This document shows positions 1,257-57,166 of a stretch of DNA of 64,000 nt, piece by piece. The notes beneath the pieces were generated by a model. It had not been told where the DNA came from and searched no databases. It was given only the letters and a program-made list of their open reading frames with translations. A program made the position numbers and the translations under genes. This DNA comes from Candidatus Moraniibacteriota bacterium (GTDB taxonomy: Bacteria > Patescibacteriota > Minisyncoccia > Moranbacterales > UBA1568). Location of the stretch: assembly GCA_030648835.1 (NCBI GenBank), contig JAUSGT010000003.1, positions 65,307-129,306 of the forward strand. The letters run 5' to 3'. Position 1 is the stretch's first letter. Each line of letters starts with the position of its first letter.

Positions 1257-3026
1257 ATGATCAGCATTCTTGACATTCTGCGGAGCAGAGAATTTCATTT
1301 GCCGTTTCTCATTGTTATCTGCATTCTATTGGCTTCCCTTTTGCAGGAGAATGGGGTATATGGACTGGCGATACTTTTGGGTATGGGACAGCTATTTGTC
1401 GAGTCATATCAGCGGATCAGGCTTCGCAAGTGGAATTTGGATTATTTGGCGTTTATTGCTTTGGGGACGGCGTTTGTCCTCAGTTCCTTTTTGGCGGGAG
1501 CGGTGGTGGCTCTTATGGTTACTGTCAGTGCCGCTCTGGAAAAGTATGGCGTGATACGCGCCGAGAAAACACTGCGGGGACTTTTTGAAAATATTCCCAA
1601 AACGGCGCTTATTGTGACCGGGGCGGGAACACATGAGGTAATGCTTCCGGCAATTCAAAAAGGGGATGTGCTCCTGGTTCGGCCAAATGAAATGCTGGCA
1701 TTTGACGGGTATCTCATGTCGGATCGAGCGCTCTTGAGCGAAGCCAATCTGACGGGAGAAATGGAACCTGTGGCATATGTGGAAACGGCCGTGCTCAAAA
1801 GCGGCGCGGTGAATGTCGGTGAGACATTCAGGCTTCGCGTCTTGGGCGACTTCGAACACTCCAGTTACCGAAAGATTTTATCCTTGGTTGAAGAAGGGAA
1901 GTTGCATCCCTCTCCTATCGTCCGTCTCGCGGAGCGCTACAATATTTTTTTTACTTTTTTCTCGCTGGCTCTGGCTTTGGGCGCATATCTCTTTTTTGGT
2001 GATTGGCAGCGTTTTCTTGCTGTTCTCGTCATTGCGACACCGTGCCCACTTCTTATTGCCGCGCCGATCAGTTTCATTGGCGGGTTGAACAAGGCCGCCC
2101 GCAAAAATATCATTATCAAGAGCCCGTTTATTTTGGAACTTCTTGCCAAAACGAAACTATTTTTTTTCGATAAGACCGGGACATTGACACTGGGGCGGCC
2201 GCGTTTGAAAAAGGTAGAGCTTTTCGACCGATCTCTCTCAAAAGAGAAAGCGCTCTCTATCGCCGCCGCTCTCGAATGGCATTCGTTCCATCCGATTGCC
2301 AAAGCTTTGGTACAGGAACATTGTTCTTCCGAAGGGGAACTGTTGACCGCCCAAGATGTGGAAGAAAAAATTGGTGAAGGAATTTTTGGGACGGTGGGAG
2401 GCAAACGTTATGGCATCATACAGGCGAAACAAAACAGAGAGAGTGGCATCGCGGTCGACCTTATTGTCGATGGGGATGCTATCGCGCGCTTTCTCTTCGA
2501 CGATGAATTGAAGCAAGACGTCGGACGCGTATTCGCCTACCTTCGTGGGCGTCAGTACACTTTGGGGATTCTGACAGGGGATAGGAAAAGCAATGCGGAG
2601 CGTCTTTTTGGACAGTTTCAGTTGCCGATTTACGCCGAGTGTCGACCGGAGAAGAAGACAGAGCTCATACAGCGTTATCAGCGTGAAGGAAAGCTTGTCG
2701 GGATGGTCGGCGACGGAATGAATGACGCGCCGGCGTTGGCTCTTGCGGATATCGGTATTGTATTTTCCGGTACGGAAAACAGCGCGTCTATCGAGGCGGC
2801 GGATGTGGCAATTTTCGGGCATGACGCGTGGCTCATTCATGACGCGATCCATATCGGTCGGCGCTCTTACCATGTGGCGTTGCAAAGTATCCTGATCGGT
2901 ATAGGACTTTCCATTGTTGGGATGTTGTTTGCCTTTTTTGGTTTTATCTCACCGCTGTATGGCGCAATTTTTCAAGAAATTATTGATGTTGTGGTGATAT
3001 TAAACGCTCTCCGTTCGACGTATTAG
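1257..3026 (+). CDS. P-type cation-transporting ATPase, P1B-like. The TPCP motif in the membrane helix and absence of an N-terminal metal-binding domain are reminiscent of the P1B-5 subgroup
   Basis: DKTGTLT phosphorylation motif, TGEM actuator motif, GDGMNDAPAL hinge motif, ATPCPLL in TM; 589 aa. Confidence 0.85.
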   Translation: MISILDILRSREFHLPFLIVICILLASLLQENGVYGLAILLGMGQLFVESYQRIRLRKWNLDYLAFIALGTAFVLSSFLAGAVVALMVTVSAALEKYGVIRAEKTLRGLFENIPKTALIVTGAGTHEVMLPAIQKGDVLLVRPNEMLAFDGYLMSDRALLSEANLTGEMEPVAYVETAVLKSGAVNVGETFRLRVLGDFEHSSYRKILSLVEEGKLHPSPIVRLAERYNIFFTFFSLALALGAYLFFGDWQRFLAVLVIATPCPLLIAAPISFIGGLNKAARKNIIIKSPFILELLAKTKLFFFDKTGTLTLGRPRLKKVELFDRSLSKEKALSIAAALEWHSFHPIAKALVQEHCSSEGELLTAQDVEEKIGEGIFGTVGGKRYGIIQAKQNRESGIAVDLIVDGDAIARFLFDDELKQDVGRVFAYLRGRQYTLGILTGDRKSNAERLFGQFQLPIYAECRPEKKTELIQRYQREGKLVGMVGDGMNDAPALALADIGIVFSGTENSASIEAADVAIFGHDAWLIHDAIHIGRRSYHVALQSILIGIGLSIVGMLFAFFGFISPLYGAIFQEIIDVVVILNALRSTY

Positions 3027-5773: not shown

Positions 5774-5857
5774 ATGAAACAACCATTGATCTTCATTGCT
5801 CTCGGCATCGTTGAAATCATCATTTTGACGCTTCTGGGATTATTCTTTTATCGCTGA
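5774..5857 (+). CDS. putative 27-aa hydrophobic small protein/leader peptide (MKQPLIFIALGIVEIIILTLLGLFFYR). Its stop TGA overlaps the ATG of the next gene (TGATG)
   Basis: GGGAGA 8 nt upstream of the ATG; single predicted TM helix; translational coupling to the 5857 ORF. Below the 60-aa cutoff of the ORF track. Confidence 0.35.
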   Translation: MKQPLIFIALGIVEIIILTLLGLFFYR

Positions 5858-6606
5858 TGATGCAAAAATTTTTTCAAAAAATCGATCCGTTCGTTATTTT
5901 CTGCTTTGACGTACATGATCTGGCCAGTGAATATATCGCGAAAAATTTTCTTTTGATAAAGCGAAGTATTCTTATTGTGGCTTATCTAAGCTTGTTTGGG
6001 GTTTTCTTCCCGGATTTACGGAAAGGGTTTGGTTCTTTGGCGGAGTATATGCTTCTTCTCATCCTTTTTCTCAGCCCATTGTCAAAAATTTTTCAGGCGC
6101 GCTTACTGCTCCAAATGATGGGATTGCGTCGAGAGTTCGGCATCTTGATGGGCTGTCTGGCCATCGTTCACGGAGTGACCTACTTTCTTGATCCGGTCAC
6201 ATTTTCTCTCAATATAGAGCCATATTTGAATACACGCTTTTTCTCCATGCCGCCGCTTTTTTACTTTGGCATTCTTTCGCTCATTCTTGTTCTGCCGCTT
6301 CTCCTCACCTCGAATAATTTCAGTCTGCGTTTTTTGGGTGGAGAAAAATGGAAAGCGCTGCATCGGCTTGTGTATGTGATTCTCTTCACCGCGCTTTTGC
6401 ATATTTTCTTTGTCCAGAGTGTGGGAAGGGGCTACAATGCAGTGGAGTTGATTCAACCCGCCGGTATTATTTTTGGCTATGTGTTGCTCAAAGTGCTGGC
6501 GTGGAAAAATTTTATTGCGCCTCTTCGTGATATAATTGTATCCGTAGGTGAGCGGTATGGAAAATATGTCCTTGCGAAGAGGGGAGAGGGCATCCCCAGC
6601 TCTTAA
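5857..6606 (+). CDS. polytopic membrane protein, ferric-reductase-like/MsrQ(YedZ)-like transmembrane domain (tentative)
   Basis: About 6 TM helices with conserved His in TM segments (HGVTYFLD, LHRLVYVILFTALLHIFF) typical of b-heme-binding FRD/MsrQ-type domains; assignment by pattern only. Confidence 0.4.
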   Translation: MMQKFFQKIDPFVIFCFDVHDLASEYIAKNFLLIKRSILIVAYLSLFGVFFPDLRKGFGSLAEYMLLLILFLSPLSKIFQARLLLQMMGLRREFGILMGCLAIVHGVTYFLDPVTFSLNIEPYLNTRFFSMPPLFYFGILSLILVLPLLLTSNNFSLRFLGGEKWKALHRLVYVILFTALLHIFFVQSVGRGYNAVELIQPAGIIFGYVLLKVLAWKNFIAPLRDIIVSVGERYGKYVLAKRGEGIPSS

Positions 6607-7992: not shown

Positions 7993-8781
7993 ATGGAAGG
8001 TAATACGGAAAATAGCACAGTGTCTCAAGAGAAAGAAGAAACATTCGGCAAGGACGCTCTTTTGGTGGCTGGAGCCGTGCTTCTTACCGGTTTGATTATT
8101 GCGGGATCTATTGTTTCGGTTACTCAGAAGCTTGCACCCACCACGACTGTCCAATCCGCGGCAAAAGACGCCGCTCTTCAGGCGCCAACTGTGCCAACGG
8201 ATACAACCGCTGTTATTTCACTTGATGATGACCCGATTCTTGGTGACAAAAACAAGGCAAAAATAGCTATCGTGGAATTCAGCGATTACGAATGTCCCTT
8301 CTGCAAGCAGTTTCATGCCAATACGTTCGATACGCTGGTGAAGGATTTTGTGGATACGGGGAAAGCGTTGATTTCTTTCCGTGATTTTCCGCTTTCTTTC
8401 CACGATCCGAATGCCACCATGGAAGCGGCAACGGCCGAATGCGTGCGGAAAGAAAAGGGAGACAAAGCATACTTCGCTTTTGGCAAACTTCTCTATCAGA
8501 ATACTCAAGCCAACGGGAAAGGTTTGGTTGAGGGAAAACTCAATCAGTTGATTGGTCAGGTGGGTGCGAATGTCAAAACTGTGACCGCTTGTGCGGCAAC
8601 CGATGCTGTGAAACAAGAGATTGCCAAAGATATCGCGGATGGAGGAAAGGCCGGCGTCACGGGTACCCCGAGCTTCGTTATTGGTGTTCTCAACGCGGAT
8701 GGCACGGTTACCGGTGAGAGAATCGTTGGCGCCGCGCCGATCGATAATTTTAAGACGGTTATTGATAAATATCTCAAATAG
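7993..8781 (+). CDS. DsbA-family thiol:disulfide oxidoreductase (thioredoxin fold), membrane-anchored
   Basis: N-terminal TM; CPFC active site in DYECPFCKQFH; DsbA-like length and helical insertion. Confidence 0.85.
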   Translation: MEGNTENSTVSQEKEETFGKDALLVAGAVLLTGLIIAGSIVSVTQKLAPTTTVQSAAKDAALQAPTVPTDTTAVISLDDDPILGDKNKAKIAIVEFSDYECPFCKQFHANTFDTLVKDFVDTGKALISFRDFPLSFHDPNATMEAATAECVRKEKGDKAYFAFGKLLYQNTQANGKGLVEGKLNQLIGQVGANVKTVTACAATDAVKQEIAKDIADGGKAGVTGTPSFVIGVLNADGTVTGERIVGAAPIDNFKTVIDKYLK

Positions 8782-10861: not shown

Positions 10862-10990
10862 TTTATGAGTATAGATTTTTGATTTTAGAATCTGTCGCTA
10901 TTCATGAATCTTAAATCCTCTTTCAAATGTGTTGAAGTTTCTAAAAAGAAAATAATGGTTATTTGCCCGATTTTACCGGCACTGCGCTCG

Positions 10991-11014
10991 GAAACGAAAG
11001 TTTACTTTCGTTTC
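10991..11014. promoter_or_regulatory. 24-bp perfect palindrome (candidate operator) upstream of korAB, embedded in a promoter-like motif shared with the 26436 gene
   Basis: GAAACGAAAGTTTACTTTCGTTTC; flanked by CCCGATTTTAC ... CTCACTTCGTTTGGTAATAAA, which recurs at 26346-26385. Confidence 0.5.
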
Positions 11015-11069
11015 GCTCACTTCGTTTGGTAATAAAGAAAAAAGTGTAAAAATAAATAAGGAGGAGGGT

Positions 11070-12776
11070 ATGAAACGTTTTTCAGGAGATATTTCTCTCG
11101 TTTTGGGAGGGGCGGCCGGTATGGGGGTGCAGACCGTCGAAGCTCTTTTGGTCCAAGTACTCAAGCGCGAAGGCTACCATGTTTTTGCGAGCAAAGAGTA
11201 TATGTCGCGCATCCGCGGCGGGAGTAATTCGACGGAAATCAGGCTCACCGACAAGAAAAGGAGTGCGTTTGTCAAACGCATTGATTTTCTCTTTGCGATG
11301 GACAAAGATGTGATACCACATCTCAAGGGGCGGATCTCGAAAGAGACTATCGTTTTAGGCGAACGGGAGAAAGTGTGTGGGGCAGCCCCGGAGTGTCATG
11401 CCATCGATATCCCTTTTACCCGTTTTGCTAACGAACTCGGCAATCCTCTTTACACGAGTACGGTAGCGGTTGGAGTGGCTCTGGGCATTTTGCGCGCCGA
11501 TGAAGGGGTTTTTGAAAACTACTTACGGGAACATTTTGCTCGCAAAGGTGAGGAAGTGGTAAAGAAAAATATTGAAGCGGCAGAGAAAGGCTATGCGTTC
11601 GGCAAACATATCGCATATCATGAAGGGATTGAAGTTCGTCTTACCAAGAGCAAGGCGGTAGAAAGTGAAATTTTGCTCGATGGGACGGAAGCCCTCGGTC
11701 TCGGTGTGTTGGCGGCAGGTTGCAATTATATTTCTTCCTATCCGATGTCACCGGGGACGGGACTACTCACTTTTTTGGCTGAGCACAGTAAAGATTTTGG
11801 CGTGGTCGTCGATCAGGCGGAAGATGAAATCGCCGCCATCAATCAGGGATTGGGGGCATGGTACGCCGGAGCGCGAGCCATTGTTACCACGTCAGGTGGT
11901 GGCTTCGATCTGATGGTGGAGGGAGTCAGTCTCTCAGGGATTATTGAAACACCCATTGTTGTGCACGTGGGTCAGCGTCCCGGACCGGCGACGGGATTGC
12001 CTACTCGCACCGAACAGGCCGACCTCAATCTGGTTTTGTATGCCGGACACGGAGAATTTCCCCGCGCTATTTTTACTCCAGGTACGGGAGAGGAAGCTTT
12101 TCTCATCGCACAGCAAGCATTCTATATCGCTGACAAGTATCAGGTCCCCGTTTTTATTCTGACGGACCAGTATTTTTTGGATTCGGTCCGGAGTTTCAAA
12201 GAAAATGGTTTGCAGAAAATACAGTCAGAGAATTTCATTATTGAAACCAAAGCAGGTTATAAGCGCTATGCCATCACTGCTGATGGAGTTTCTCCGCGCG
12301 GGGTACCGGGGTATGGCGATGGACTGGTCGGTATCGATAGCGATGAACACGATGAGGACGCCCATATCACGGAGAGTGCAAAGATGCGTGTTCTCATGCA
12401 TGAAAAGCGTTGGCGTAAAATGGAGGGCGTTCGTGATGAGGCGTTTCTTCCGACAGAAATCGGGGATGTAGCGCGCGCGGATATTATTATTGTTTCTTGG
12501 GGATCGAACCGAGGCGTCATAGAAGAGGCTCTCGAGATGGTAAAGCGGGATGATGTGGCTGGACTGCATTTCCATCAAGTCTATCCGTTGCCGAAAAAAG
12601 TGAAAAAACTTCTGATGAAGAAAAAGATTGTTGTTTTGGAAAATAATTTTTCCGGGCAATTCACCAATCTTCTGAAACTCGAATACGGAGTCAAAATTAC
12701 GGATACCATTCTCAAGTATGACGGTGACCCATTTTCGGTAGAGGAAGTGGTTGAAAAACTAAAAGCTATAAGCTAA
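11070..12776 (+). CDS. korA: 2-oxoacid:ferredoxin oxidoreductase subunit alpha (fused gamma-alpha domains), KorA/PorA-like
   Basis: N-terminal gamma-like domain (GGAAGMGVQT) followed by the alpha domain; partner beta-subunit gene immediately downstream. Confidence 0.85.
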   Translation: MKRFSGDISLVLGGAAGMGVQTVEALLVQVLKREGYHVFASKEYMSRIRGGSNSTEIRLTDKKRSAFVKRIDFLFAMDKDVIPHLKGRISKETIVLGEREKVCGAAPECHAIDIPFTRFANELGNPLYTSTVAVGVALGILRADEGVFENYLREHFARKGEEVVKKNIEAAEKGYAFGKHIAYHEGIEVRLTKSKAVESEILLDGTEALGLGVLAAGCNYISSYPMSPGTGLLTFLAEHSKDFGVVVDQAEDEIAAINQGLGAWYAGARAIVTTSGGGFDLMVEGVSLSGIIETPIVVHVGQRPGPATGLPTRTEQADLNLVLYAGHGEFPRAIFTPGTGEEAFLIAQQAFYIADKYQVPVFILTDQYFLDSVRSFKENGLQKIQSENFIIETKAGYKRYAITADGVSPRGVPGYGDGLVGIDSDEHDEDAHITESAKMRVLMHEKRWRKMEGVRDEAFLPTEIGDVARADIIIVSWGSNRGVIEEALEMVKRDDVAGLHFHQVYPLPKKVKKLLMKKKIVVLENNFSGQFTNLLKLEYGVKITDTILKYDGDPFSVEEVVEKLKAIS

Positions 12777-12789
12777 CGGCTAAAAGCTG

Positions 12790-13653
12790 ATGAGTATGAT
12801 TGATAAAAAATTATATGATATGCCGCAGGGGACGGATATGGCTTGGTGTCCGGGGTGTGGTAATTTTCCTATTCTCAATATTGTGAAAATGGCATTTGCA
12901 GAACTCGATATCAAGCCACAGGACGCGGTTATTTGTTCCGGTATCGGTCAGGCCGCCAAGACACCGCACTATTTGCGTGTGAACTACTTCAATGGTCTGC
13001 ATGGCAGGGCATTGCCTCCGGCCATCGCCATCAAAGTAACTAATCCCAAGTTGACGGTCATCGCCGAGAGCGGTGATGGGGATACCTATGGTGAGGGGGG
13101 CAATCATTTCATGCATACCATACGACGTAATCCCGATATCACAAACATCGTGCATGACAATATGATTTATGGTTTGACCAAGGGTCAGGCGTCGCCGACG
13201 TCCGAAAAGGGTATGAAAAATCCCATTCAGAAAGAAGGGGTCATTGTGGAGCAGTTCAACCCGCTGGCGGTGGCGTTGTCACTTGACGCGACATTCGTGG
13301 CGCGGGCCTTTACCGGAGATATTCTTCAGACGAAAGATATCATCAAGGCCGCTATTCTCCATAAGGGCTATGCTCTGGTGGACGTGTTCCAGCCGTGCGT
13401 CGTATACAACAAACAAAATACCTATCAATGGTTTAAGGAAAAAGGCTATTATGTGGATGGGAGCCACGATAAGACAGACAAAATGAAGGCAATGGAATTG
13501 GCGTTTGATCTCGAGCGTTTGGCACTCGGTATCATCTATCAGCGCGAAGGCAAGCCGACATACGAAACGCTGGTACGGGAGGGGAGTGAGCCGCTGTATG
13601 AAAAATCTTTTGATAAGGCAGCGCTCGAAAACCTCATCGATACATATAAGTAA
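12790..13653 (+). CDS. korB: 2-oxoacid:ferredoxin oxidoreductase subunit beta (TPP-binding)
   Basis: CPGCGNF, TPP motif IAESGDGDTYGEGGNH. Confidence 0.9.
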   Translation: MSMIDKKLYDMPQGTDMAWCPGCGNFPILNIVKMAFAELDIKPQDAVICSGIGQAAKTPHYLRVNYFNGLHGRALPPAIAIKVTNPKLTVIAESGDGDTYGEGGNHFMHTIRRNPDITNIVHDNMIYGLTKGQASPTSEKGMKNPIQKEGVIVEQFNPLAVALSLDATFVARAFTGDILQTKDIIKAAILHKGYALVDVFQPCVVYNKQNTYQWFKEKGYYVDGSHDKTDKMKAMELAFDLERLALGIIYQREGKPTYETLVREGSEPLYEKSFDKAALENLIDTYK

Positions 13654-18879: not shown

Positions 18880-19290
18880 TTAGGAAGTAGTATTCTTTGG
18901 AACCAAACTGCCGAGTGATATATTTGAAAGAGTTTCTTTGACTTTATTTTCCAGGGTGCGCCATACTTCATTGGTTTGGCAATGACTGACCTGGAGGCAG
19001 GGGAGAGCCCCCTTGACGGGTGCGGAGAAAGTTTTGATGGGACCGTCGAGCTCACAGAGGATATCCCAGACGCTGATTTCTTTGGCGGGACGGGCCAGGA
19101 CATATCCACCGGTCATACCTTTATGTGCCATAACCAAGTTGGCTCGGCGTAAGGATTGAAGAATCTTCTCGAGATAATCTTCGGGGATATGTTCTGCGTT
19201 TGCAATAGTATGAGTAGACAGCGGTTTGTCACTCTGTGCGAGAGCGAGCACCGCCCGAAGCCCATAATAAGCCTTTTTTGAGATTTTCAT
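18880..19290 (-). CDS. Rrf2-family transcriptional regulator (IscR/SufR-like), first gene of suf operon
   Basis: N-terminal wHTH YGLRAVLALA...; C-terminal Cys ligands (CELDGP...C..SHC). Confidence 0.8.
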   Translation of the reverse strand: MKISKKAYYGLRAVLALAQSDKPLSTHTIANAEHIPEDYLEKILQSLRRANLVMAHKGMTGGYVLARPAKEISVWDILCELDGPIKTFSAPVKGALPCLQVSHCQTNEVWRTLENKVKETLSNISLGSLVPKNTTS

Positions 19291-25252: not shown

Positions 25253-26344
25253 ATGTCTATGACTATCAGAAAAGATAAAATAGCTTTTTTTGAAAAGTCG
25301 CTTTTTGATTTCTTCCGCAAAGCGGGGCGGGAGCATTTGCCGTGGCGCAAAAAGAAAATCACGGCCTATGAAGTGTGGGTAGCGGAAGTGATGCTCCAGC
25401 AGACGCAGGTTTCGCGTGTTATCGGTTATTATGAGCGCTTTTTGAAGCAGTTCCCAATCGTTCAGAAACTAGCGCGAGTTTCGTGGGAGGAATTTCTGCC
25501 ATATTACGAGGGGCTGGGTTATTACACGCGTGGCCGCAATATGCTTGAAACGGCGAAAAAAGTGGTGAAGGATTACGGTGGAAAGTTTCCACGGGATAAA
25601 AAACTTTTGGAGACATTGCCAGGTGTCGGTCCCTATACGGCAGCAGCTATCATGAGCTTTGCCTACGGTGATGATCATCTGGCTTGGGATACGAACCTGA
25701 GGCGGGTGATCGGGCGATTTTTTTTCGGAACGAAGAATTTTGCTTCTGTCATTCCGGCCTACGAGCCGGAATCTAGATCCCGGGTTCCTCCGAAGGTGGG
25801 CAGGCAATCCGGGATGACATTAAAAAAGTTAGAGGAACAATTTTCTCTCCCCGCGAAAACACTGAACGCGGCGCTTATGGATTTTGGGAGCGCCTTGTGT
25901 GTCGGTCGGCCCAAGTGCGAGGCCTGCGCTCTGCGGAATCGGTGCGTGTACTATCGAGAGAAGGGGAGACAGGAAACAGTCAGCAGTCAACAGTCAACCC
26001 GCCTGCCGGCGAGGCAGGCAAAAAACAAAGGAGAAGATAAGAAACAAGATTGGAAAAACGCGCAGGTATATGTTTTTTTGCATGAGAATCATCGGAAATA
26101 TTTTTCATCCAGCAAAAGGCAGTTTAGGCCGTTTGTTTTACCTTCTGGTTATAATACACGCTCCGGCATCAAGAAATATTTTCAGGAGAAATATCAATTG
26201 ACACTTTCTGTCCGGCCACCTTATAAGAAAGAGAGTATCAAAGGAAAACAAATATTTTTTGTGAATGCGCAGATTCTTCTCGGGGAGCCGGTTTTTCGGG
26301 TGTTTCCGAAAAAACCCGGAAAAGAGTATAATAACGGGTATTAA
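25253..26344 (+). CDS. mutY: A/G-specific adenine DNA glycosylase MutY-like (HhH-GPD plus 4Fe-4S loop) with C-terminal extension
   Basis: VWVAEVMLQQTQVSRVIGYYERF, HhH GVGPYTAAAIMSFAY, Cys cluster CVGRPKCEACALRNRC; an in-frame palindromic insert encodes EPESRSRVPPKVGRQSGMT. Confidence 0.85.
   Translation: MSMTIRKDKIAFFEKSLFDFFRKAGREHLPWRKKKITAYEVWVAEVMLQQTQVSRVIGYYERFLKQFPIVQKLARVSWEEFLPYYEGLGYYTRGRNMLETAKKVVKDYGGKFPRDKKLLETLPGVGPYTAAAIMSFAYGDDHLAWDTNLRRVIGRFFFGTKNFASVIPAYEPESRSRVPPKVGRQSGMTLKKLEEQFSLPAKTLNAALMDFGSALCVGRPKCEACALRNRCVYYREKGRQETVSSQQSTRLPARQAKNKGEDKKQDWKNAQVYVFLHENHRKYFSSSKRQFRPFVLPSGYNTRSGIKKYFQEKYQLTLSVRPPYKKESIKGKQIFFVNAQILLGEPVFRVFPKKPGKEYNNGY
25748..25818 (+). repeat. palindromic insertion element (RPE-like) in-frame within mutY
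   Basis: GTCATTCCGGCCTACGAGCCGGAATCTAGATCCCGGGTTCCTCCGAAGGTGGGCAGGCAATCCGGGATGAC. Confidence 0.8.
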
Positions 26345-26435
26345 ACCCGATTTTACTAGTACTACACTCACTTCGTTTGGTAATAAAAACCAGGACATTT
26401 TTTGTTCCGAGGGGCATAAATAATAATATAATTGT

Positions 26436-26870
26436 ATGGGAAAGTTTTTAGGGCTATTGGTGGTTCTCGTCGTTCTTGGAGGGGGGTTTCTCATTTTTGG
26501 CAAGGGTGGGCAGAAGGTTGAGGCGCCGGTTATTTCCACACCGACTGCAGAGGTGGGTACACCAGCCGCGCCGGTTGGTACATCAGCCGGGGAGACAAAG
26601 GAAGTGGTTGTGAAGGCGAGCAGCTGGGCGTTTGATCCGGCGGAAATCCGTGTCAAAGAAGGGACAAAGGTAAAAATTACCCTGCAAGGGGTTTCCGGTA
26701 CGCACGCGTTTTCTATCCCCGAATTGGGAGTGAACAGCCAGACGGTGAGCGTGGGGGAAACGGCGACGGTGGAATTTGTAGCCAGTAAGAAAGGAGAATT
26801 CTCCTTTAAATGTTCCGTTTTCTGCGGTGAGGGGCACAGCGGTATGACGGGGAAGCTTATTGTTGAATAA
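26436..26870 (+). CDS. membrane-anchored CuA-type cupredoxin domain protein (cytochrome oxidase subunit II-like copper centre, stand-alone)
   Basis: N-terminal TM; TH(A)FSIPELGV then CSVFCGEGHSGM, matching the CuA ligand pattern H...C-x3-C-G-x2-H-x2-M. Confidence 0.75.
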   Translation: MGKFLGLLVVLVVLGGGFLIFGKGGQKVEAPVISTPTAEVGTPAAPVGTSAGETKEVVVKASSWAFDPAEIRVKEGTKVKITLQGVSGTHAFSIPELGVNSQTVSVGETATVEFVASKKGEFSFKCSVFCGEGHSGMTGKLIVE

Positions 26871-26967
26871 ACGTGGCATTCTTTGCAAAAGCTGTCCTAA
26901 CCTGGTTGGGGCGGCTTTTTTGCACTGGTAAAAAGTCCCAAGAGTGCTATACTGAAGAAAAATATTT

Positions 26968-28026
26968 ATGCAATTGCGCTCATTCAATGTCTATTTCTTT
27001 TTTCTCCTCCTTTTTGGGGTGGGGATAGTGGTGTTTTTTGTTTTTGAGCCGTTCTTGACGGCTGTCGTGGCGGCTGCTATTTTATCGGCTCTTTTCAAAC
27101 ACCCTTACAATACCCTTGAGAAATGGACGAGGGGGAGCAGGGGCTGGAGCGCATTCCTTACCTGTCTTCTGGTGATTTTCATCGTTGTGACGCCGGTTTT
27201 TCTGGTACTGAGTCTCGCTATAGGTGAGGCCAACAATCTGTACCACACTTTGAGCGAGGAATCGGCTCTGGAAAGAATTATCAACAAAAATGTCGAAATA
27301 GCTCACACTGTTCCGTATCTGAATATTTTCTTCGATACGGAGACACTCAATGAAGGGCGGATCTTAAGTGATATCAAAGAGTTCAGCCAGAACGCTCTCG
27401 GTTTGCTCCAGGCCGCGTATCAGGGGATTACCAGTTTTATTTTCTGGGTATTTGTGATGTTCTTTTCACTTTTTTATTTCTTGATCGATGGCAAACGGAT
27501 GCTGGGGCGGCTTATGGGGTTGAGCCCCTTGAGAGATGAACATGACAGACTTCTCATCAAAAAATTTGTTTCCATCAGTCGAGCCACACTCAAGGGGACG
27601 ATTGTCATTTGCATCATCCAGGGTCTTTTGGGAGGGTTTACGTTTTGGGTGGCCGGCATTCCATCGCCGGTTATTTGGGGGCTGGTGATGACGCTCTCTT
27701 CGATTATTCCCATGGTCGGATCGGGACTGGTCTGGCTTCCGGCCGGTATCATTATGCTTTTGCTTGGGAATATTTGGCAGGGAGTTTTCATCCTTGCGGT
27801 GGGGATGGGAATTATTTCGGTGATAGACAATGTCCTTCGCCCAAAATTGGTTGGCAAAGACACGCAGATGCATCCGCTGCTTGTCCTTTTCGCGACTCTG
27901 GGCGGGATATCACTTTTCGGGTTGACGGGTTTTATTATCGGACCAATTGTTGTCTCTCTCTTCTTGGCTTTGGGTGAGATTTACAGCATCGAGTTCCGTG
28001 ATCAGCTCAAAGAATACAACCAATAG
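26968..28026 (+). CDS. AI-2E family transporter (PerM/UPF0118)
   Basis: 8-TM topology; conserved C-terminal block ILAVGMGIISVIDNVLRPKLVGK. Confidence 0.8.
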   Translation: MQLRSFNVYFFFLLLFGVGIVVFFVFEPFLTAVVAAAILSALFKHPYNTLEKWTRGSRGWSAFLTCLLVIFIVVTPVFLVLSLAIGEANNLYHTLSEESALERIINKNVEIAHTVPYLNIFFDTETLNEGRILSDIKEFSQNALGLLQAAYQGITSFIFWVFVMFFSLFYFLIDGKRMLGRLMGLSPLRDEHDRLLIKKFVSISRATLKGTIVICIIQGLLGGFTFWVAGIPSPVIWGLVMTLSSIIPMVGSGLVWLPAGIIMLLLGNIWQGVFILAVGMGIISVIDNVLRPKLVGKDTQMHPLLVLFATLGGISLFGLTGFIIGPIVVSLFLALGEIYSIEFRDQLKEYNQ

Positions 28027-28965: not shown

Positions 28966-29376
28966 ATGTTCGATAAAAAAATAATCACTGTTCTCGTCGG
29001 GGCGCTGGTGCTTGTGACGGGCTTCGTCTATTGGGGCCTCTCGGATGGGGGGCAGACGGTGGTTGATGATGAGACGGCGATTGTTTACTATTGGGGCGAT
29101 GGCTGTCCGCATTGCAAGATAGTCAGTGATTTTCTCGAGGCGAATGATATCGCCAGCAAAGTTTCCTTTGAAAAGAAAGAAGTCTGGAGCAATAAAACGA
29201 ATGCTAGTGAAATGGGGCGCCGGGCAAAGGCATGTGGTGTCAAGCCGGAGGGGATGGGGGTGCCGTTTGTTTATGGTGGGGATGGAAAATGCTATATTGG
29301 TGAAGTGGATGCCGTCAATTTTTTCAAGGTAAAGAGCGGTATGAGTACGGACACTTCTTCTGAAACACAAAGGTAA
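28966..29376 (+). CDS. secreted/anchored glutaredoxin-like (thioredoxin-fold) protein
   Basis: N-terminal TM; WGDGCPHCK active site; VPFVYGG cis-Pro motif as in glutaredoxins. Confidence 0.65.
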   Translation: MFDKKIITVLVGALVLVTGFVYWGLSDGGQTVVDDETAIVYYWGDGCPHCKIVSDFLEANDIASKVSFEKKEVWSNKTNASEMGRRAKACGVKPEGMGVPFVYGGDGKCYIGEVDAVNFFKVKSGMSTDTSSETQR

Positions 29377-39680: not shown

Positions 39681-39702
39681 TTTATTTTTTTCAAAAATTG
39701 TG

Positions 39703-40102
39703 TGGAGTTGATGGGAATTGCACCCATGTCCAGAAACATTTTCCCAAAATATTCTACAAGCTTAGAGTGCTTTGTGTAATGAAAGAAGTAAAAAGCAGAC
39801 AAAATCTCCATTCATTTTTTTCTTTCGCAATACGGCTGAGAAGAAGAAAGAAAAAGAAACTCTTCGGCCGTCTCGATTATATGACACCAGAGATTCCTTA
39901 CCGAGAATCGGGATTCTGATGGCTCCGCGCTAAAATTTAGGCGAGAGCAAGAGCGAAAGTTGGTGCGAACGCTTGCGCGATCGCATTCTTTGCTTTTGTG
40001 ATGAAGTTTGCATTTATCATCGTGAGAACGATTTTTACGATCATGTTCTCAAGATCGGCTTGCCTATTTTGAAAGTACGCCCTGTCGAGTCTAAACAACC
40101 CC
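39703..40102 (-). ncRNA. ssrA: tmRNA (ssrA), predicted; tag reading frame ANFITKAKNAIAQAFAPTFALALA-stop
   Basis: 5' end GGGGUUGUUUAGACUCGACAGGG matches the tmRNA 5' consensus GGGGnUGAUUnnGGnUUCGACGGG. 3' end GGACAUGGGUGCAAUUCCCAUCAACUCCA gives a T-arm plus an acceptor strand pairing with the 5' GGGGUUG (CCA not encoded). Internal ORF GCA AAC ... GCU CUU GCU CUC GCC UAA ends ALALA. Sits immediately downstream of smpB on the same strand. Confidence 0.7.
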
Positions 40103-40169: not shown

Positions 40170-40613
40170 CTACGATCTCATTGCCCGATTTATCCTTCTT
40201 TTGGCGTCGCGTTTACCAATATCTGAGCGCTTGTCGTAGGACTTTTTTCCTTTTCCAACAGCAAACTCCAACTTGACAAGTTGTTTCCTAGTATACAGGC
40301 GGATAGGCACGAGTGTCAAGCCTTCGGTGCGGTATTTCCCGATAAGAGAGCGAATTTCCCGTTTACGGAGGAGGAGTTTACGGGGGCGACCGGGTTCGTG
40401 TGTCGTATCACGATGGGCATGGGCATAACGGGGGATGAGAGCGTTCGTCAGGTACAATTCGTCCCCTTTGACCGTCACGAAGCTGCCTTTGAGGCTGGCG
40501 TGGCCTGTTTTGACCGACTTTACCTCCGATCCGGTCAACACCAAACCAGCCTCGAAGTGTCCTTCGAGGGCATAGTCGAACCCGGCTCGTTTGTTGGTGG
40601 CGATGACTGTCAT
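40170..40613 (-). CDS. smpB: SsrA-binding protein
   Basis: GFDYALEGHFEAGLVLTGSEVKS...GLTLVPIRLY; 147 aa. Confidence 0.9.
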   Translation of the reverse strand: MTVIATNKRAGFDYALEGHFEAGLVLTGSEVKSVKTGHASLKGSFVTVKGDELYLTNALIPRYAHAHRDTTHEPGRPRKLLLRKREIRSLIGKYRTEGLTLVPIRLYTRKQLVKLEFAVGKGKKSYDKRSDIGKRDAKRRINRAMRS

Positions 40614-54520: not shown

Positions 54521-55861
54521 ATGGCAGAAGAAAAAAACGATTTAATGGAGAAAATTGTGTCGCTGTGCAAGCGCCGGGGTTTTGTATTTTCGGGGAGTGA
54601 TATTTATGGCGGTCTGGCTAATTCTTGGGACTTTGGGCCGTATGGCGCCCAGCTCAAGAAAAATATCAAAGATCATTGGTGGAAATTCTTTGTAGAAAGT
54701 CGTGATGATATGGTAGGTCTGGATGCTGCTGTTATTATGAATCCCAAAGTGTGGGAAGCCAGCGGTCATACAGGAAATTTTTCCGATCCACTTACTGAGT
54801 GCGGTAGTTGTCATACACGTTTTCGGGCCGATCAGATTGATATGAGTCAGCCCTGTACGCATTGTGGCAAGGGAAAGTTGGTAGAGCCGAAAAATTTCAA
54901 CCTCATGCTGAAGACATTCCTCGGACCGACAGAAGAGACGGCTGATGTGGCTTATCTCCGACCTGAAACGGCACAGGCCATGTTTATAGATTTTGTGACG
55001 GTGCAACAAACCAGTCGCAAAAGGTTGCCTTTCGGGATAGCGCAGATGGGCAAGGCTTTTCGTAATGAAATCACACCCGGCAATTTTATTTTCCGGACGC
55101 GTGAATTTGATCTTATGGAATTTGAGTATTTTTTCAATCCCAAGAAAAGTAATTGGGAAGATCTTTTCGAAAATTGGAAACAAGCCATAGAAGAATGGAT
55201 GAAAGCGGTGGGTATTGATATGGAGCGGGTGAAAGCGGTGGAAATCCCCGATGGTGAGCGAGCACACTACTCCAAGCGCACGATTGATTTTGAGTTTTTG
55301 TATCCGTTTGGTCAGAAAGAACTTTTTGGTCTGGCGTATCGGACGGATTATGATCTCGCTCAGCACGAAAAAGCCAGTGGCCAGGAACTCCGTTATCTGG
55401 ATCCGGAAACCAACGAGAAAGTTCTCCCACATGTCATTGAACCGGCATTTGGCGCCGATCGAGCGATGCTGGCTATCCTCCTTTCTTCCTACGTGGAAGA
55501 AAAAGGCGACGAAGAGATTCGAGTAGTGCTGAAACTGCCGAAGAAACTCGCGCCGGTGAAGGTGGCGGTGTTTCCACTTATGAAAAACAAACCGGAACTG
55601 GTGGCCAAGGCCAAGGAAATATTTGACACTCTCAAAGGAGATTTCACTTGCGAATTTGATGATAATGGCAATGTGGGCAAGCGCTACCGTCGCCAGGACG
55701 AGATCGGTACGCCGTACTGTGTGACGGTGGACTTTGATACGATCGGAGCAGGGGAAGACAAATCGCTCGAAGGCACCGTCACTGTTCGTGACCGCGATAC
55801 GATGCAGCAGGAACGCGTCCCAATAGAGCGTCTCAAAGGGTTCTTTGCGGAAAAGTTTTAG
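54521..55861 (+). CDS. glyQS: glycyl-tRNA synthetase (alpha2 dimeric type)
   Basis: GFVFSGSDIYGGLANSWDFGPYGAQLKKNIKDHWW; class II motifs; 446 aa. Confidence 0.9.
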   Translation: MAEEKNDLMEKIVSLCKRRGFVFSGSDIYGGLANSWDFGPYGAQLKKNIKDHWWKFFVESRDDMVGLDAAVIMNPKVWEASGHTGNFSDPLTECGSCHTRFRADQIDMSQPCTHCGKGKLVEPKNFNLMLKTFLGPTEETADVAYLRPETAQAMFIDFVTVQQTSRKRLPFGIAQMGKAFRNEITPGNFIFRTREFDLMEFEYFFNPKKSNWEDLFENWKQAIEEWMKAVGIDMERVKAVEIPDGERAHYSKRTIDFEFLYPFGQKELFGLAYRTDYDLAQHEKASGQELRYLDPETNEKVLPHVIEPAFGADRAMLAILLSSYVEEKGDEEIRVVLKLPKKLAPVKVAVFPLMKNKPELVAKAKEIFDTLKGDFTCEFDDNGNVGKRYRRQDEIGTPYCVTVDFDTIGAGEDKSLEGTVTVRDRDTMQQERVPIERLKGFFAEKF

Positions 55862-55876
55862 CTTGATTCGTAATTC

Positions 55877-57166
55877 TTGACTCTCTTTGAAATGAAATAT
55901 CAGAAATACACGCTTTCGAACGGCCTTCGGATAGTACTCTCGCCGATGCGGGATACGGAAACGGCGACAGTTATCGTGATGACTGGCGTGGGGTCGCGCT
56001 ATGAGACGGAAAAGGAAAATGGCTTGGCGCATTTTCTCGAGCACATGTTTTTCAAGGGTACCAAGAAGCGGCCCGATACCCATACGATCAGCAAAGAGCT
56101 GGATGCTATCGGTGCGGAATACAACGCCTATACCGCCAAGGATCACACGGCGTATTATGCCAAGGTGGAGGCGCATCACTGGGACACAGCGCTCGATGTG
56201 GTGAGCGATCTGTTCCTTAACGCCAAGTTGGAACAAGAAGAGATCGATCGTGAGCGCGGTACCATCCTTCAGGAAATCAATATGTACGAGGATATGCCGG
56301 CGCGGCGTGTCGGGGAGCACTTTGAAAGAATGCTCTATGGAACCCACCCACTCGGGCGGGAAATTCTTGGGCCGAAAGAAAACATCAAATCTTTCACACG
56401 CAAAGACTTCATCAAATATTTGAATCGCGGGTATACGGCAGAGAACGTTGTGATTGGCGTGGCTGGGAAAATCAGTCCGAGAAAAGTAAAGAGGGAAATC
56501 GAAAAACATTTTGCCCATATCCGTGTAGGCTCGAGACCGGCGTTCAAAAAAATCAAGGAACAGCAAAGTGCTCCGGTAATCTCCCTCCATCACAAGAAAA
56601 CGGATCAGACACACCTCATCGTGGGAGTGCGGGCCTATGATATGTTTCATAAAGATCGGTTTGCCCTCGCGGTACTGTCTGTCGTTCTTGGCGGCGGGAT
56701 GTCATCTAGATTGTGGATAGAAGTCCGCGAGCGGCGTGGGCTGGCCTACAATGTTTCGACCGGCGTGGATACCTACCATGATGCCGGTTATCTCGCGACG
56801 CAGTGCGGTGTCGAACACGCGAATGTGGAAAAGACGGTAGCCGTGATTCTCGAGCAGTACAGAAAGATCAGAGCGGAGCTTGTTTCCGATGAAGAACTGC
56901 GGAAAGCCAAAGAGTATATGAAGGGGCACTTCGCCCTCGGTATGGAAGGTTCGGACGATGTGGTCGGCTATCTCGTTACCCAAGAAGTCTTGCGTCACGA
57001 GGTGATGCTCCCCAAGGAGCGTATCAAGATGATTGATCGTGTCACGGCTTATGATATCCGGCGTGTCGCCAGAGATATTTTCCAGAATAAGAAACTGAAT
57101 TTGGCGGTTATCGGACCGCACACGTCGGAAGCGAAACTTTCGAGAGTATTGAGGTTGGGATTCTGA
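55877..57166 (+). CDS. M16-family zinc metallopeptidase (insulinase-like)
   Basis: HFLEHMFFKGT (HxxEH inverted zincin motif); downstream Glu. Confidence 0.85.
   Translation: MTLFEMKYQKYTLSNGLRIVLSPMRDTETATVIVMTGVGSRYETEKENGLAHFLEHMFFKGTKKRPDTHTISKELDAIGAEYNAYTAKDHTAYYAKVEAHHWDTALDVVSDLFLNAKLEQEEIDRERGTILQEINMYEDMPARRVGEHFERMLYGTHPLGREILGPKENIKSFTRKDFIKYLNRGYTAENVVIGVAGKISPRKVKREIEKHFAHIRVGSRPAFKKIKEQQSAPVISLHHKKTDQTHLIVGVRAYDMFHKDRFALAVLSVVLGGGMSSRLWIEVRERRGLAYNVSTGVDTYHDAGYLATQCGVEHANVEKTVAVILEQYRKIRAELVSDEELRKAKEYMKGHFALGMEGSDDVVGYLVTQEVLRHEVMLPKERIKMIDRVTAYDIRRVARDIFQNKKLNLAVIGPHTSEAKLSRVLRLGF

Follow-up and report, generated by a model that had tools for sequence, protein, structure and literature searches.

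A membrane-tethered, stand-alone CuA-type cupredoxin of Moranbacteria and its widespread relatives in candidate phyla radiation bacteria and DPANN archaea

A 64-kb stretch of genomic DNA from a Candidatus Moraniibacteriota bacterium, here called the window, encodes a 144-residue cupredoxin with all five side-chain ligands of the binuclear CuA copper centre. The product is a conserved, exported or anchored single-chain protein which combines a complete CuA ligand set with a CuA fold and a flexible tether, and neighbouring COX1 and NosZ genes are absent throughout its family. It is best explained as a surface-tethered CuA electron carrier which operates apart from any oxidase, as part of an extracytoplasmic pathway concerned with redox reactions or oxidative stress, a reading to which we give a probability of roughly 0.55. 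The initial annotation had described the gene as an unexpected orphan. That it stands alone, with no oxidase partner nearby, holds true; that it is an isolated oddity does not, as it belongs to a large family and is vertically conserved. The surprise is further reduced by the single-domain cupredoxins of candidate phyla radiation (CPR) bacteria which have already been proposed as donors to the copper nitrite reductase NirK (PMC5581439; PMC12931201).

The transmembrane-anchored open reading frame (ORF) reported earlier is present on the forward strand (Table 1), and its product contains the peptides THAFSIPELG and CSVFCGEGHSGM exactly as they had been quoted. An identical protein was called on Logan contig SRR13727527_18884. 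The full ligand set can also be read directly from the DNA: besides His90, it consists of C126 (26811-26813), C130 (26823-26825), H134 (26835-26837) and M137 (26844-26846), arranged as H90-x35-C126-x3-C130-x3-H134-x2-M137. This spacing between histidine and first cysteine is one residue above that of the canonical motif Hx34Cx3Cx3Hx2M (PMC6189053), and the protein qualifies as a bearer of the CuA motif. Both spacings occur in the family, with 34 residues in 113 members and 35 in 31. The backbone carbonyl ligand of the predicted site is expected to come from V128. Among the homologues, C126 and M137 do not vary and H90, C130, G131, G133 and H134 are kept in at least 90%, while the C-x3-C-x3-H-x2-M loop is found in 174 of the 187 family proteins collected. 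Judged by this conservation, the gene is real and under selection.

Domain and structure searches point the same way. The product passes the Pfam models Cupredoxin_1 (PF13473; 44.7 bits against a gathering score of 27) and COX2 (PF00116; 28.4 against 22) and, marginally, Copper-bind (PF00127; 23.9 against 21.2). Its best NCBIfam match is the lactonase-type nitrous oxide (N2O) reductase L-NosZ (E 3.6e-13), where it aligns to the last 107 residues. The closest solved relatives come from the ba3 oxidase of Thermus thermophilus, where they are the CuA domains of subunit II (E 6e-11 to 2e-9; all ligands aligned), followed by N2O reductases. His90 aligns with His114 of the Thermus protein. An AlphaFold2 model built on an alignment of 38 homologues shows a Greek-key cupredoxin fold in residues 53-144, with a predicted local distance difference test score (pLDDT) above 90, and Foldseek superposes it on 2cua/2qpe and on the CuA domains of N2O reductases with a root-mean-square deviation (rmsd) of 1.4-1.6 Å over 90-95 residues; for 2cua, a Thermus ba3 CuA domain, the values are 1.4 Å over 91 residues at a probability of 1.00. 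Foldseek also matches the fold of a Bacillus anthracis Cupredoxin_1 structure, 4hcf, which is not detected by sequence searches from the family. A type-1 blue copper protein of the plastocyanin/azurin kind was rejected as an identity: the loop holds two cysteines with CuA spacing, not the mononuclear C-x2-4-H-x2-4-M.

The domain is preceded by a hydrophobic segment and a disordered linker. The N-terminal segment has no lipobox cysteine and is therefore probably an uncleaved membrane anchor which places the domain outside the cell. This architecture recurs across the family, where 144 of the 148 small proteins with a single CuA domain have a hydrophobic N-terminal segment, 62 of those with a lipobox-like motif. 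Anchor and domain are joined by a stretch of 7 to 113 residues (median 46), rich in E, T, P, A and S.

A word-indexed search yielded 43 relatives of 120-212 residues at 40-89% identity. When a family profile was run against 1.84 billion cluster representatives (50%-identity clusters), 22,677 proteins matched at E≤1e-3 and 1,375 clusters at E≤1e-30, the best 150 matches being mostly single-domain proteins of 130-200 residues. To place the genes in their genomes, one genome per GTDB species was scanned with the pattern TVEFVADKKG, which returned 80 loci (±10 kb; loci and collected proteins are referred to below by L and P numbers). Most lie in CPR bacteria, namely Moran-, Roizman-, Davies-, Magasanik-, Azam-, Falkow-, Wolfe- and Staskawiczbacteria, as well as Kaiser-, Gracili-, Peregrini- and Saccharibacteria and Microgenomates. 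Many others lie in DPANN archaea (Woese-, Pace-, Aenigm- and Nanoarchaeota, AR10, Altiarchaeota), and outside these two groups one Paenibacillus, several Desulfobacterota and one Omnitrophota were found. As the scan was limited by its pattern, this distribution is biased towards close relatives. No relatives were returned by a scan of viral contigs. In public databases the relatives are named cupredoxin domain-containing protein (NCBI) or, for two homologues, cytochrome c oxidase subunit 2 (JGI); the latter label is wrong.

The proteins of the Desulfobacterota loci L056, L061, L063, L072, L073 and L075 form a subgroup of about 120 residues with a divergent loop, CTKFCGW[GK]HFxM. They keep operon company with SHOCT-domain proteins, DUF302 proteins, a pyridoxal phosphate enzyme and Cu-ATPases, and their role is probably copper-related, unlike that of the CPR and DPANN proteins.

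The stated absence of cox1, nosZ and cytochrome genes from the window was confirmed by Pfam searches on all long ORFs, which found no COX1, NosZ, NirK, multicopper oxidase or c-type cytochrome in the 64 kb. The motif CxxCH occurs there only as single incidental instances, one of them inside a tRNA synthetase. At the level of the family, 62 CuA-type loci were assembled from the scan and from loci gathered before it, each defined by an explicit six-frame search for the CuA loop, and COX1 is absent within ±10 kb of all of them. Across 1.41 Mb, comprising the window and the related loci, neither the CuB signature of COX1 (a pattern modelled on PROSITE PS00077) nor, by CxxCH counts, any multihaem ORF was detected. 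Seventeen neighbouring ORFs have at least nine predicted transmembrane segments. Ten of these were run on Pfam and none is COX1: nine are transporters (MFS, amino-acid, TRAP, AcrB, Na/H and TctA types) or a glycosyltransferase/polysaccharide-synthesis fusion and the tenth matches no Pfam family, while several of the other seven had already been identified as MFS, Nramp or P-type ATPases. With polytopic neighbours that are transporters and the like and with no COX1 signature, the reading as an oxidase subunit was rejected at the family level; judged from these loci, it is likewise unlikely that a cox1 or nosZ gene elsewhere continues an operon from the cupredoxin gene.

What does lie beside the genes was determined by calling ORFs in all loci, clustering them by all-against-all BLASTP and annotating representatives with Pfam and NCBIfam. 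The neighbours that recur close to CuA-type genes were compiled for loci other than the collinear Moranbacteria ones. In seven loci of the Microgenomates/Roizmanbacteria type an Fe/Mn superoxide dismutase (SOD) gene follows the CuA-type gene on the same strand at 21-67 bp, and in one Woesearchaeon it lies 1.6 kb away. DoxX is adjacent in seven loci as well (one Magasanikbacteria, five Woesearchaeota, one Pacearchaeota). The gene for a 432-residue NOX/FRE-like protein with Ferric_reduct, FAD_binding_8 and NAD_binding_1 domains shares 11 nt with the cupredoxin gene in L064 and is found nearby in L046. Thiol-disulfide proteins form a further group: membrane thioredoxin-like genes stand directly upstream of the CuA-type gene in L031, L054, L037 and L067, and the neighbours include DsbA-like proteins, VKOR (L078), CcdA/DsbD_TM 3 bp downstream (L067), thioredoxin reductase at 138 bp (L039) and glutaredoxin. 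A rhodanese gene lies at 18 bp in L046 and MsrP/SorA-like molybdoenzymes are found in L042 and L051. Copper proteins are represented by CopA-type Cu-ATPases near L060 (40 bp), L072 (34 bp), L031, L061, L073, L038 and L046 and by multicopper oxidases near L012 and L038; the L012 protein is a NirK-like two-domain enzyme at 590 bp which scores 98 bits against a NirK cut-off of 296. Most CPR and DPANN members stand beside SOD, DoxX, NOX-like or thioredoxin genes, not beside copper-resistance genes.

The CuA domain is also found fused to other redox modules. In L048 (8330-10270, forward strand) it forms the C-terminus of a three-domain multicopper oxidase, with the loop CPTYCGEGHDGM. P0060 is a lipoprotein with two tandem CuA domains and a cytochrome-d1-type propeller lacking a haem-c motif, P0066 joins a type-1 copper domain, a CuA domain and a NapH/NosR-like Fe-S membrane domain, and P0105 joins three thioredoxin-like domains to CuA. 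Each of these four could be an undescribed enzyme type. Further fusions involve DUF7282 and DUF5667. The partners in the fusions with redox modules are those expected of an electron-transfer module.

The scan pattern caught two types of loop, the CuA-type CSVFCGxGHxxM and a type-1-like CSV-GxHRxxGM, and the type-1 set comprises about 24 loci. H90, C126 and M137 are invariant over both (alignment A2). Small anchored cupredoxins with the type-1 loop occur in L033, L036, L043, L050, L055, L057-L059, L062, L065, L066, L068, L074, L076, L079-L083 and L087-L090. In a neighbour-joining tree calculated with the loop masked, they group as a single clade inside the CuA-type sequences, those from CPR and DPANN genomes are mixed with one another and the Thermus COX2 stands on a long branch. 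Since the tree carries no support values, the nesting is only suggestive and the ancestral loop is not settled by it. The two types also occupy the same operon slots. Between TrmD and SOD-GltX, the CuA type is found in L018, L019, L020, L023, L024, L027 and L069 and the type-1 form in L058, L065 and L077; ahead of the Ferric_reduct-FAD-NAD protein, the CuA type is found in L064 and L046 and the type-1 form in L043, L081 and L093. Electron transfer is the main function common to both kinds of centre, and the sharing of slots therefore argues for an electron-transfer role.

Taken together, these observations lead to the following model. A membrane-tethered, extracytoplasmic "purple" cupredoxin would bind a binuclear CuA centre, presumably with two coppers, and would carry electrons one at a time at the membrane's outer face without a haem-copper oxidase or N2O reductase. 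Copper for the site would be exported by a P1B ATPase, and membrane thioredoxin-like or CcdA-type proteins would hold both cysteines reduced, allowing the centre to assemble. Bacterial CuA assembly relies on thioredoxin-fold proteins of the TlpA/Sco type, which reduce CoxB and load it with metal, and on P1B ATPases as the source of copper; the thioredoxin-like, CcdA and CopA neighbours fit this scheme and are thus consistent with a function in maturation. The electron donor could be a transmembrane haem-b protein (ferric-reductase/NOX/MsrQ type) or another redox protein of the membrane, for instance DoxX, VKOR or a NapH-like protein, and the electrons could leave to a copper enzyme (multicopper oxidase, NirK-like) or to an oxidative-stress or thiol-redox module of the SOD-DoxX-rhodanese type. 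The effect would be that reducing equivalents are disposed of, or O2, reactive oxygen species (ROS) or nitrite detoxified, outside the cell and without a respiratory chain. Electron transfer is favoured over copper trafficking because of the interchangeability with type-1 copper, the fusions to redox enzymes and the adjacency of NOX/FRE-like and NapH-like proteins.

Other explanations were weighed against this model. Given the best sequence and structure match, the protein might belong to a B-type (ba3-like) haem-copper oxidase as its subunit II, with the gene for subunit I at another place in the genome, and would then be part of an O2-scavenging terminal oxidase. One transmembrane helix followed by a CuA domain, in about 150 residues, is indeed the plan of Thermus ba3 subunit II, two homologues bear the JGI name quoted above, and some CPR bacteria (Saccharibacteria) carry a cytochrome o quinol oxidase (PMC9530719; PMC9938205). 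The protein nevertheless fails the CoxB equivalog model (TIGR02866; 46.7 bits against a cut-off of 147.7), as it does the models for actinobacterial CtaC, CyoA and SoxA. Genes for subunits I and II are normally adjacent, and the lack of COX1 around the 62 loci and in the window speaks against such an oxidase. So do the long, disordered and variable linker and the frequent lipoprotein anchors, which are ill-suited to rigid docking on subunit I, and the type-1 sister clade which substitutes in identical gene contexts. Moranbacteria, moreover, are described as lacking terminal reductases (PMC10811913), and an oxidase subunit is altogether improbable. An identity as NosZ was likewise rejected, with 34-49 bits against cut-offs of 625-700 (TIGR04244/04246, NF052460) and 144 residues that hold a CuA domain without the catalytic propeller, and so was PmoD, given the canonical motif within one chain and the absence of pmo/amo genes from the window. 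A decaying relic devoid of copper, or a surface protein with a structural role and no more than the fold of a cupredoxin, would suit the lack of a visible partner and the reduced host genome; it is barely credible in view of ligands that vary little or not at all among homologues 40-89% identical, a fixed gene position in Moranbacteria genomes diverged to about 46-60% identity and a family of 1,375 clusters at the strict threshold.

Two further proposals keep the copper but assign it another task. A protein of copper homeostasis, acting as an extracytoplasmic copper binder or sequesterer or as helper of a copper-oxidising multicopper oxidase (resistance of the CopI/CueO type), would account for the Cu-exporting P1B ATPases adjoining CuA-type members in the seven loci named above, the multicopper oxidases near L038 and L012, the fusion within the copper island of L048 and the DUF302, SHOCT and HMA-DsbD_2-cupredoxin genes nearby, along with a weak match to CopI. 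It would apply above all to the Desulfobacterota subgroup and to the copper islands L038 and L048. For the protein of the window it is unlikely: the identity as the copper-resistance cuproprotein CopI was rejected (NF051440; 24.1 bits against 280), there is no copper island in the window, whose sole P1B ATPase falls below the copper-subfamily cut-off, and the prevailing CPR and DPANN neighbours are of the redox kind. A neighbouring CopA is equally expected if it merely supplies copper for metallation. A CuA centre, in addition, is a buried, coordinatively saturated redox site and not a labile transfer site. A special case of the electron-carrier model is that of a dedicated donor to a NirK encoded elsewhere in the genome. 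Each CPR bin containing NirK has a cupredoxin (PMC5581439), the same pairing is proposed in PMC12931201, a NirK-like two-domain oxidase lies near the CuA-type member of L012, and the fusion of CuA to a d1-type propeller in P0060 hints at N-oxide chemistry. Yet the L012 protein falls far below the NirK cut-off, the remaining loci showed no NirK within ±10 kb, and NirK is patchy in CPR bacteria (4 of 34 genomes, PMC5581439; 11 genomes, PMC9938205) whereas the cupredoxin family is far wider. As NirK has been reported from Kaiser-, Harrison- and Nomurabacteria and not from Moranbacteria, such a dedicated role is doubtful here.

Several points weigh against a tethered electron carrier. For every member of the family the copper centre is a prediction. 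The Moranbacteria neighbours (MnmA, the MutY-like protein, the AI-2E transporter and Lgt) say nothing of redox partners, so that candidate partners have to be imported from distant lineages. Several of the neighbour associations may represent shared synteny and not independent events, the SOD linkage lying mostly within Microgenomates. The loci with Cu-ATPase, DUF302, SHOCT and multicopper oxidase genes (Desulfobacterota, Omnitrophota, Moranbacteria L038) look like copper-resistance islands, and copper handling fits them equally well. Finally, CPR bacteria usually lack haem synthesis, and a haem-b donor would therefore need scavenged haem.

In Moranbacteria the gene order MnmA, MutY-like protein, cupredoxin, AI-2E transporter and Lgt is kept down to about 46% protein identity, and in L005 the cupredoxin start overlaps the stop codon of the MutY-like gene. 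No redox partner was found in this synteny, which is genome collinearity; by the same comparison, the cupredoxin is vertically conserved in Moranbacteria. A HhH-GPD [4Fe-4S] DNA glycosylase of the Nth/MutY family stands directly upstream of a CuA gene both in Moranbacteria (25253-26870 in the window) and in the DPANN archaeon GW2011_AR10 (L028:9120-10294), a pairing which could be coincidence or reflect a shared oxidative-damage regulon.

The homologues of the 144-residue protein are labelled Moranbacteria, Moraniibacteriota or Patescibacteria, which identifies the host as a CPR bacterium. Moranbacteria are regarded as probable obligate fermenters without terminal reductases (PMC10811913), in agreement with the fermentative character earlier read from the gene content. 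By Pfam, the window encodes KorAB/POR (11070-13653), a Suf system with an Rrf2 regulator (about 18880-19290, reverse strand) and, at its end, ATP synthase subunit b; many tRNA synthetases, tRNA-modification genes and a transfer-messenger RNA (tmRNA) with SmpB are also present (Pfam, Rfam). Possible helpers of the cupredoxin within the window are few. The MsrQ/ferric-reductase-type protein at 5857-6606 scores 53.9 bits with the NCBIfam MsrQ model, under the cut-off of 130, and its His105, His169 and His182 sit in the expected helices when inspected by eye. It is a possible electron-input partner and the sole candidate visible in the window, by analogy alone with the loci where a Ferric_reduct-FAD-NAD protein abuts the cupredoxin. 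Together with the two genes that follow it (up to 8781, forward strand), it makes up a thiol-redox set outside the cytoplasm which includes a haem protein, in a host expected to lack quinones and haem synthesis. The CPHC protein downstream of the cupredoxin could, again by analogy, act as a thiol-redox or maturation helper, because thioredoxin-like genes abut the CuA gene in four other loci.

Table 1. Features of the window discussed in the text.
Feature	Position	Strand	Details
MsrQ/ferric-reductase-type haem-b membrane protein, 249 aa	5857-6606	+	Pfam Ferric_reduct, 2.3e-11
Thioredoxin-fused membrane protein, 417 aa	6621-7874	+	N-terminal glutaredoxin-like CAHC domain and Cys-containing polytopic membrane domain, the latter without Pfam hit
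DsbA-like thioredoxin protein	7993-8781	+	Pfam
Upstream composite element of the cupredoxin gene	26335-26387	+	Hairpin CGGGTATTAAACCCG, then CCCGATTTTAC (26346-26356), then CTCACTTCGTTTGGTAATAAA (26367-26387)
Stand-alone CuA-type cupredoxin gene, 144 aa	26436-26870	+	Coordinates include the stop codon; Pfam, structure-relative and homologue matches
N-terminal hydrophobic signal-anchor, residues 4-22, FLGLLVVLVVLGGGFLIFG	26445-26501	+	AlphaFold2 helix 6-15; predicted topology
Low-complexity P/T/A/G/V-rich linker, residues 23-52	26502-26591	+	Predicted disordered, pLDDT 45-55
Cupredoxin beta-sandwich domain, residues 53-144	26592-26867	+	pLDDT 90-98; Foldseek
His90 codon, N-terminal CuA ligand	26703-26705	+	DNA reading; invariant in CuA-type/type-1 alignment A2
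CuA ligand loop C126-S-V-F-C130-G-E-G-H134-S-G-M137	26811-26846	+	DNA reading, alignments
Membrane-anchored thioredoxin/glutaredoxin-like protein, CPHC motif	28966-29376	+	Pfam/NCBIfam; 2.1 kb downstream of the cupredoxin

The region upstream of the cupredoxin gene had been said to share a conserved promoter-like motif with korAB. The sharing is real: a 21-nt exact repeat, CTCACTTCGTTTGGTAATAAA, precedes both korA (at 11016) and the cupredoxin gene (at 26367), with no such repeat expected by chance, and the 11-nt block CCCGATTTTAC occurs at 10966 and 26346. Both belong to a composite element whose layout is a hairpin CGGGT..ACCCG, the sequence ATTTTAC, an optional CGGCACTGCGCTCGG with a variable hairpin and then CTCACTTCGTTTGGTAATAAA. 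In the korA copy (10966-11036) an extra hairpin parts the two blocks; at the cupredoxin gene the first hairpin, CGGGTATTAAACCCG, overlaps the stop codon of the MutY-like gene. Conservation was not borne out, as the element does not precede the cupredoxin orthologues of L002, L005, L007 and L014-L016. A further copy precedes the Rrf2-suf operon of another Moranbacteria genome (L015:4536-4625, reverse strand). Because it is missing at the orthologues and present at Rrf2-suf, it is viewed as a genome-specific regulatory or repeat element and not as a cupredoxin-specific promoter; it may serve as an operator, with Rrf2 as a possible regulator, or may simply be a small repeat. As an operator it would link the cupredoxin with an Fe-S/redox regulon. 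Rfam has no match at the element, and over the whole window yields only the tmRNA. A scan of 26200-27100 for sigma-70 promoters and terminators gave no promoter match upstream of the gene. A perfect TATAAT is present at 26427-26432; at just 3 nt from the ATG, it is too close for usual service of that start codon. The ATG is not preceded by a Shine-Dalgarno sequence, and expression by read-through from the MutY-like gene or from an unusual leader is possible.

Some other features of the window deserve mention. The P1B heavy-metal ATPase at 1257-3026 (forward strand, 589 residues) is short, without an N-terminal metal-binding domain, and has the membrane motif ATPCPLL instead of CPC; it passes the heavy-metal and Cd-family models and fails the copper-subfamily one (271 against a cut-off of 397). 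A 702-residue ORF at 54542-56650 (reverse strand) has no family hit and, like the ORF at 56702-57121 (reverse strand), runs antisense to real genes, which encode a class II aminoacyl-tRNA synthetase (54521-55861) and an M16 peptidase (55877-57166), both on the forward strand. The 702-residue ORF is spurious and a trap for a naive ORF caller. The tmRNA (39700-40102, reverse strand; 112.9 bits) adjoins SmpB (40170-40613, reverse strand) and overlaps a spurious 74-residue ORF on the forward strand (39698-39919).

Several known systems resemble the family in part. Thermus ba3 subunit II (CbaB; 2cua, 1ehk) shares the N-terminal transmembrane helix, the cupredoxin domain and the ligand set, at 27-30% identity and an rmsd of 1.4-1.5 Å over 91 residues; here, by contrast, there is no adjoining subunit I gene, the linker of 30 residues is disordered and many relatives are lipoproteins. 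The C-terminal CuA domain of NosZ, including clade III lactonase-type L-NosZ, has the same fold and ligand loop, whereas the 144-residue protein lacks the catalytic beta-propeller or CuZ domain. Small membrane-anchored cupredoxins with a CuA-like centre outside cytochrome oxidase and N2O reductase are also represented by PmoD of methane and ammonia oxidisers, whose centre spans a homodimer and takes its ligands from a non-canonical set without Hx34Cx3Cx3Hx2M (PMC6189053), unlike the canonical motif within one chain found here. The single-domain cupredoxins described from CPR bacteria (pseudoazurin, halocyanin, "plastocyanin") are small extracytoplasmic carriers in hosts without a respiratory chain as well; they were named cupredoxin or plastocyanin, not CuA, and described as type-1 donors to NirK (PMC5581439; PMC12931201), in contrast to the binuclear ligand set and the absence of a visible NirK here. 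What those studies saw is probably the type-1 sister clade. In engineered purple CuA azurin and amicyanin and in CuA/type-1 loop-swap chimeras (1cc3, 5u7n; PMC6115626), the C-terminal loop alone sets the type of centre, and it is in that loop that the natural CuA-type and type-1 clades differ; the chimeras are laboratory constructs, while the cupredoxin family is natural and widespread. The gene neighbourhoods recall the membrane oxidoreductase complex DoxX-SodA-SseA of M. tuberculosis, which is genetically linked to the P-type ATPase CtpC (PMC6930017): DoxX, Fe/Mn-SOD, rhodanese and P1B ATPase genes recur beside the CuA cupredoxin in CPR and DPANN loci. The mycobacterial complex has no known cupredoxin, and the likeness is one of gene neighbourhood alone.

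Full-text literature searches found no paper joining CuA with CPR or DPANN terms. To our knowledge, CuA outside cytochrome c oxidase and N2O reductase is known only from quinol/CuA nitric oxide reductase, the dimeric PmoD site and engineered proteins. From a natural, single-chain, stand-alone CuA family, bioinorganic chemistry would gain a new CuA system of minimal size, and the natural type-1 sister clade at its side repeats the classic loop-swap experiments. For metabolic reconstructions, the label cytochrome c oxidase subunit 2 can falsely imply aerobic respiration, and "plastocyanin" misleads equally.

For CPR and DPANN organisms, the family would represent an overlooked extracytoplasmic redox module, tied by neighbourhood to SOD, DoxX, NOX-like flavocytochromes, thiol-disulfide proteins and copper oxidases, which could explain oxygen tolerance, the disposal of reducing equivalents or electron exchange with a host in cells without respiratory chains. 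Going further, and only tentatively, the tethered CuA may be the outlet of a minimal non-respiratory path which leads from cytoplasmic NAD(P)H or thiols through a haem-b membrane protein of the ferric-reductase/NOX type (or DoxX, VKOR or a NapH-like protein) to CuA and from there to multicopper oxidase, NirK, O2/ROS or even redox proteins on the surface of the host cell that bears these episymbionts. If this is true, "obligate fermenters" would gain an extracellular electron sink, CuA, so far met only within respiratory enzymes, would be a free-standing redox cofactor which has toggled with type-1 copper in evolution, and the stand-alone tethered CuA cupredoxins would constitute a previously unrecognised class of natural electron carriers.

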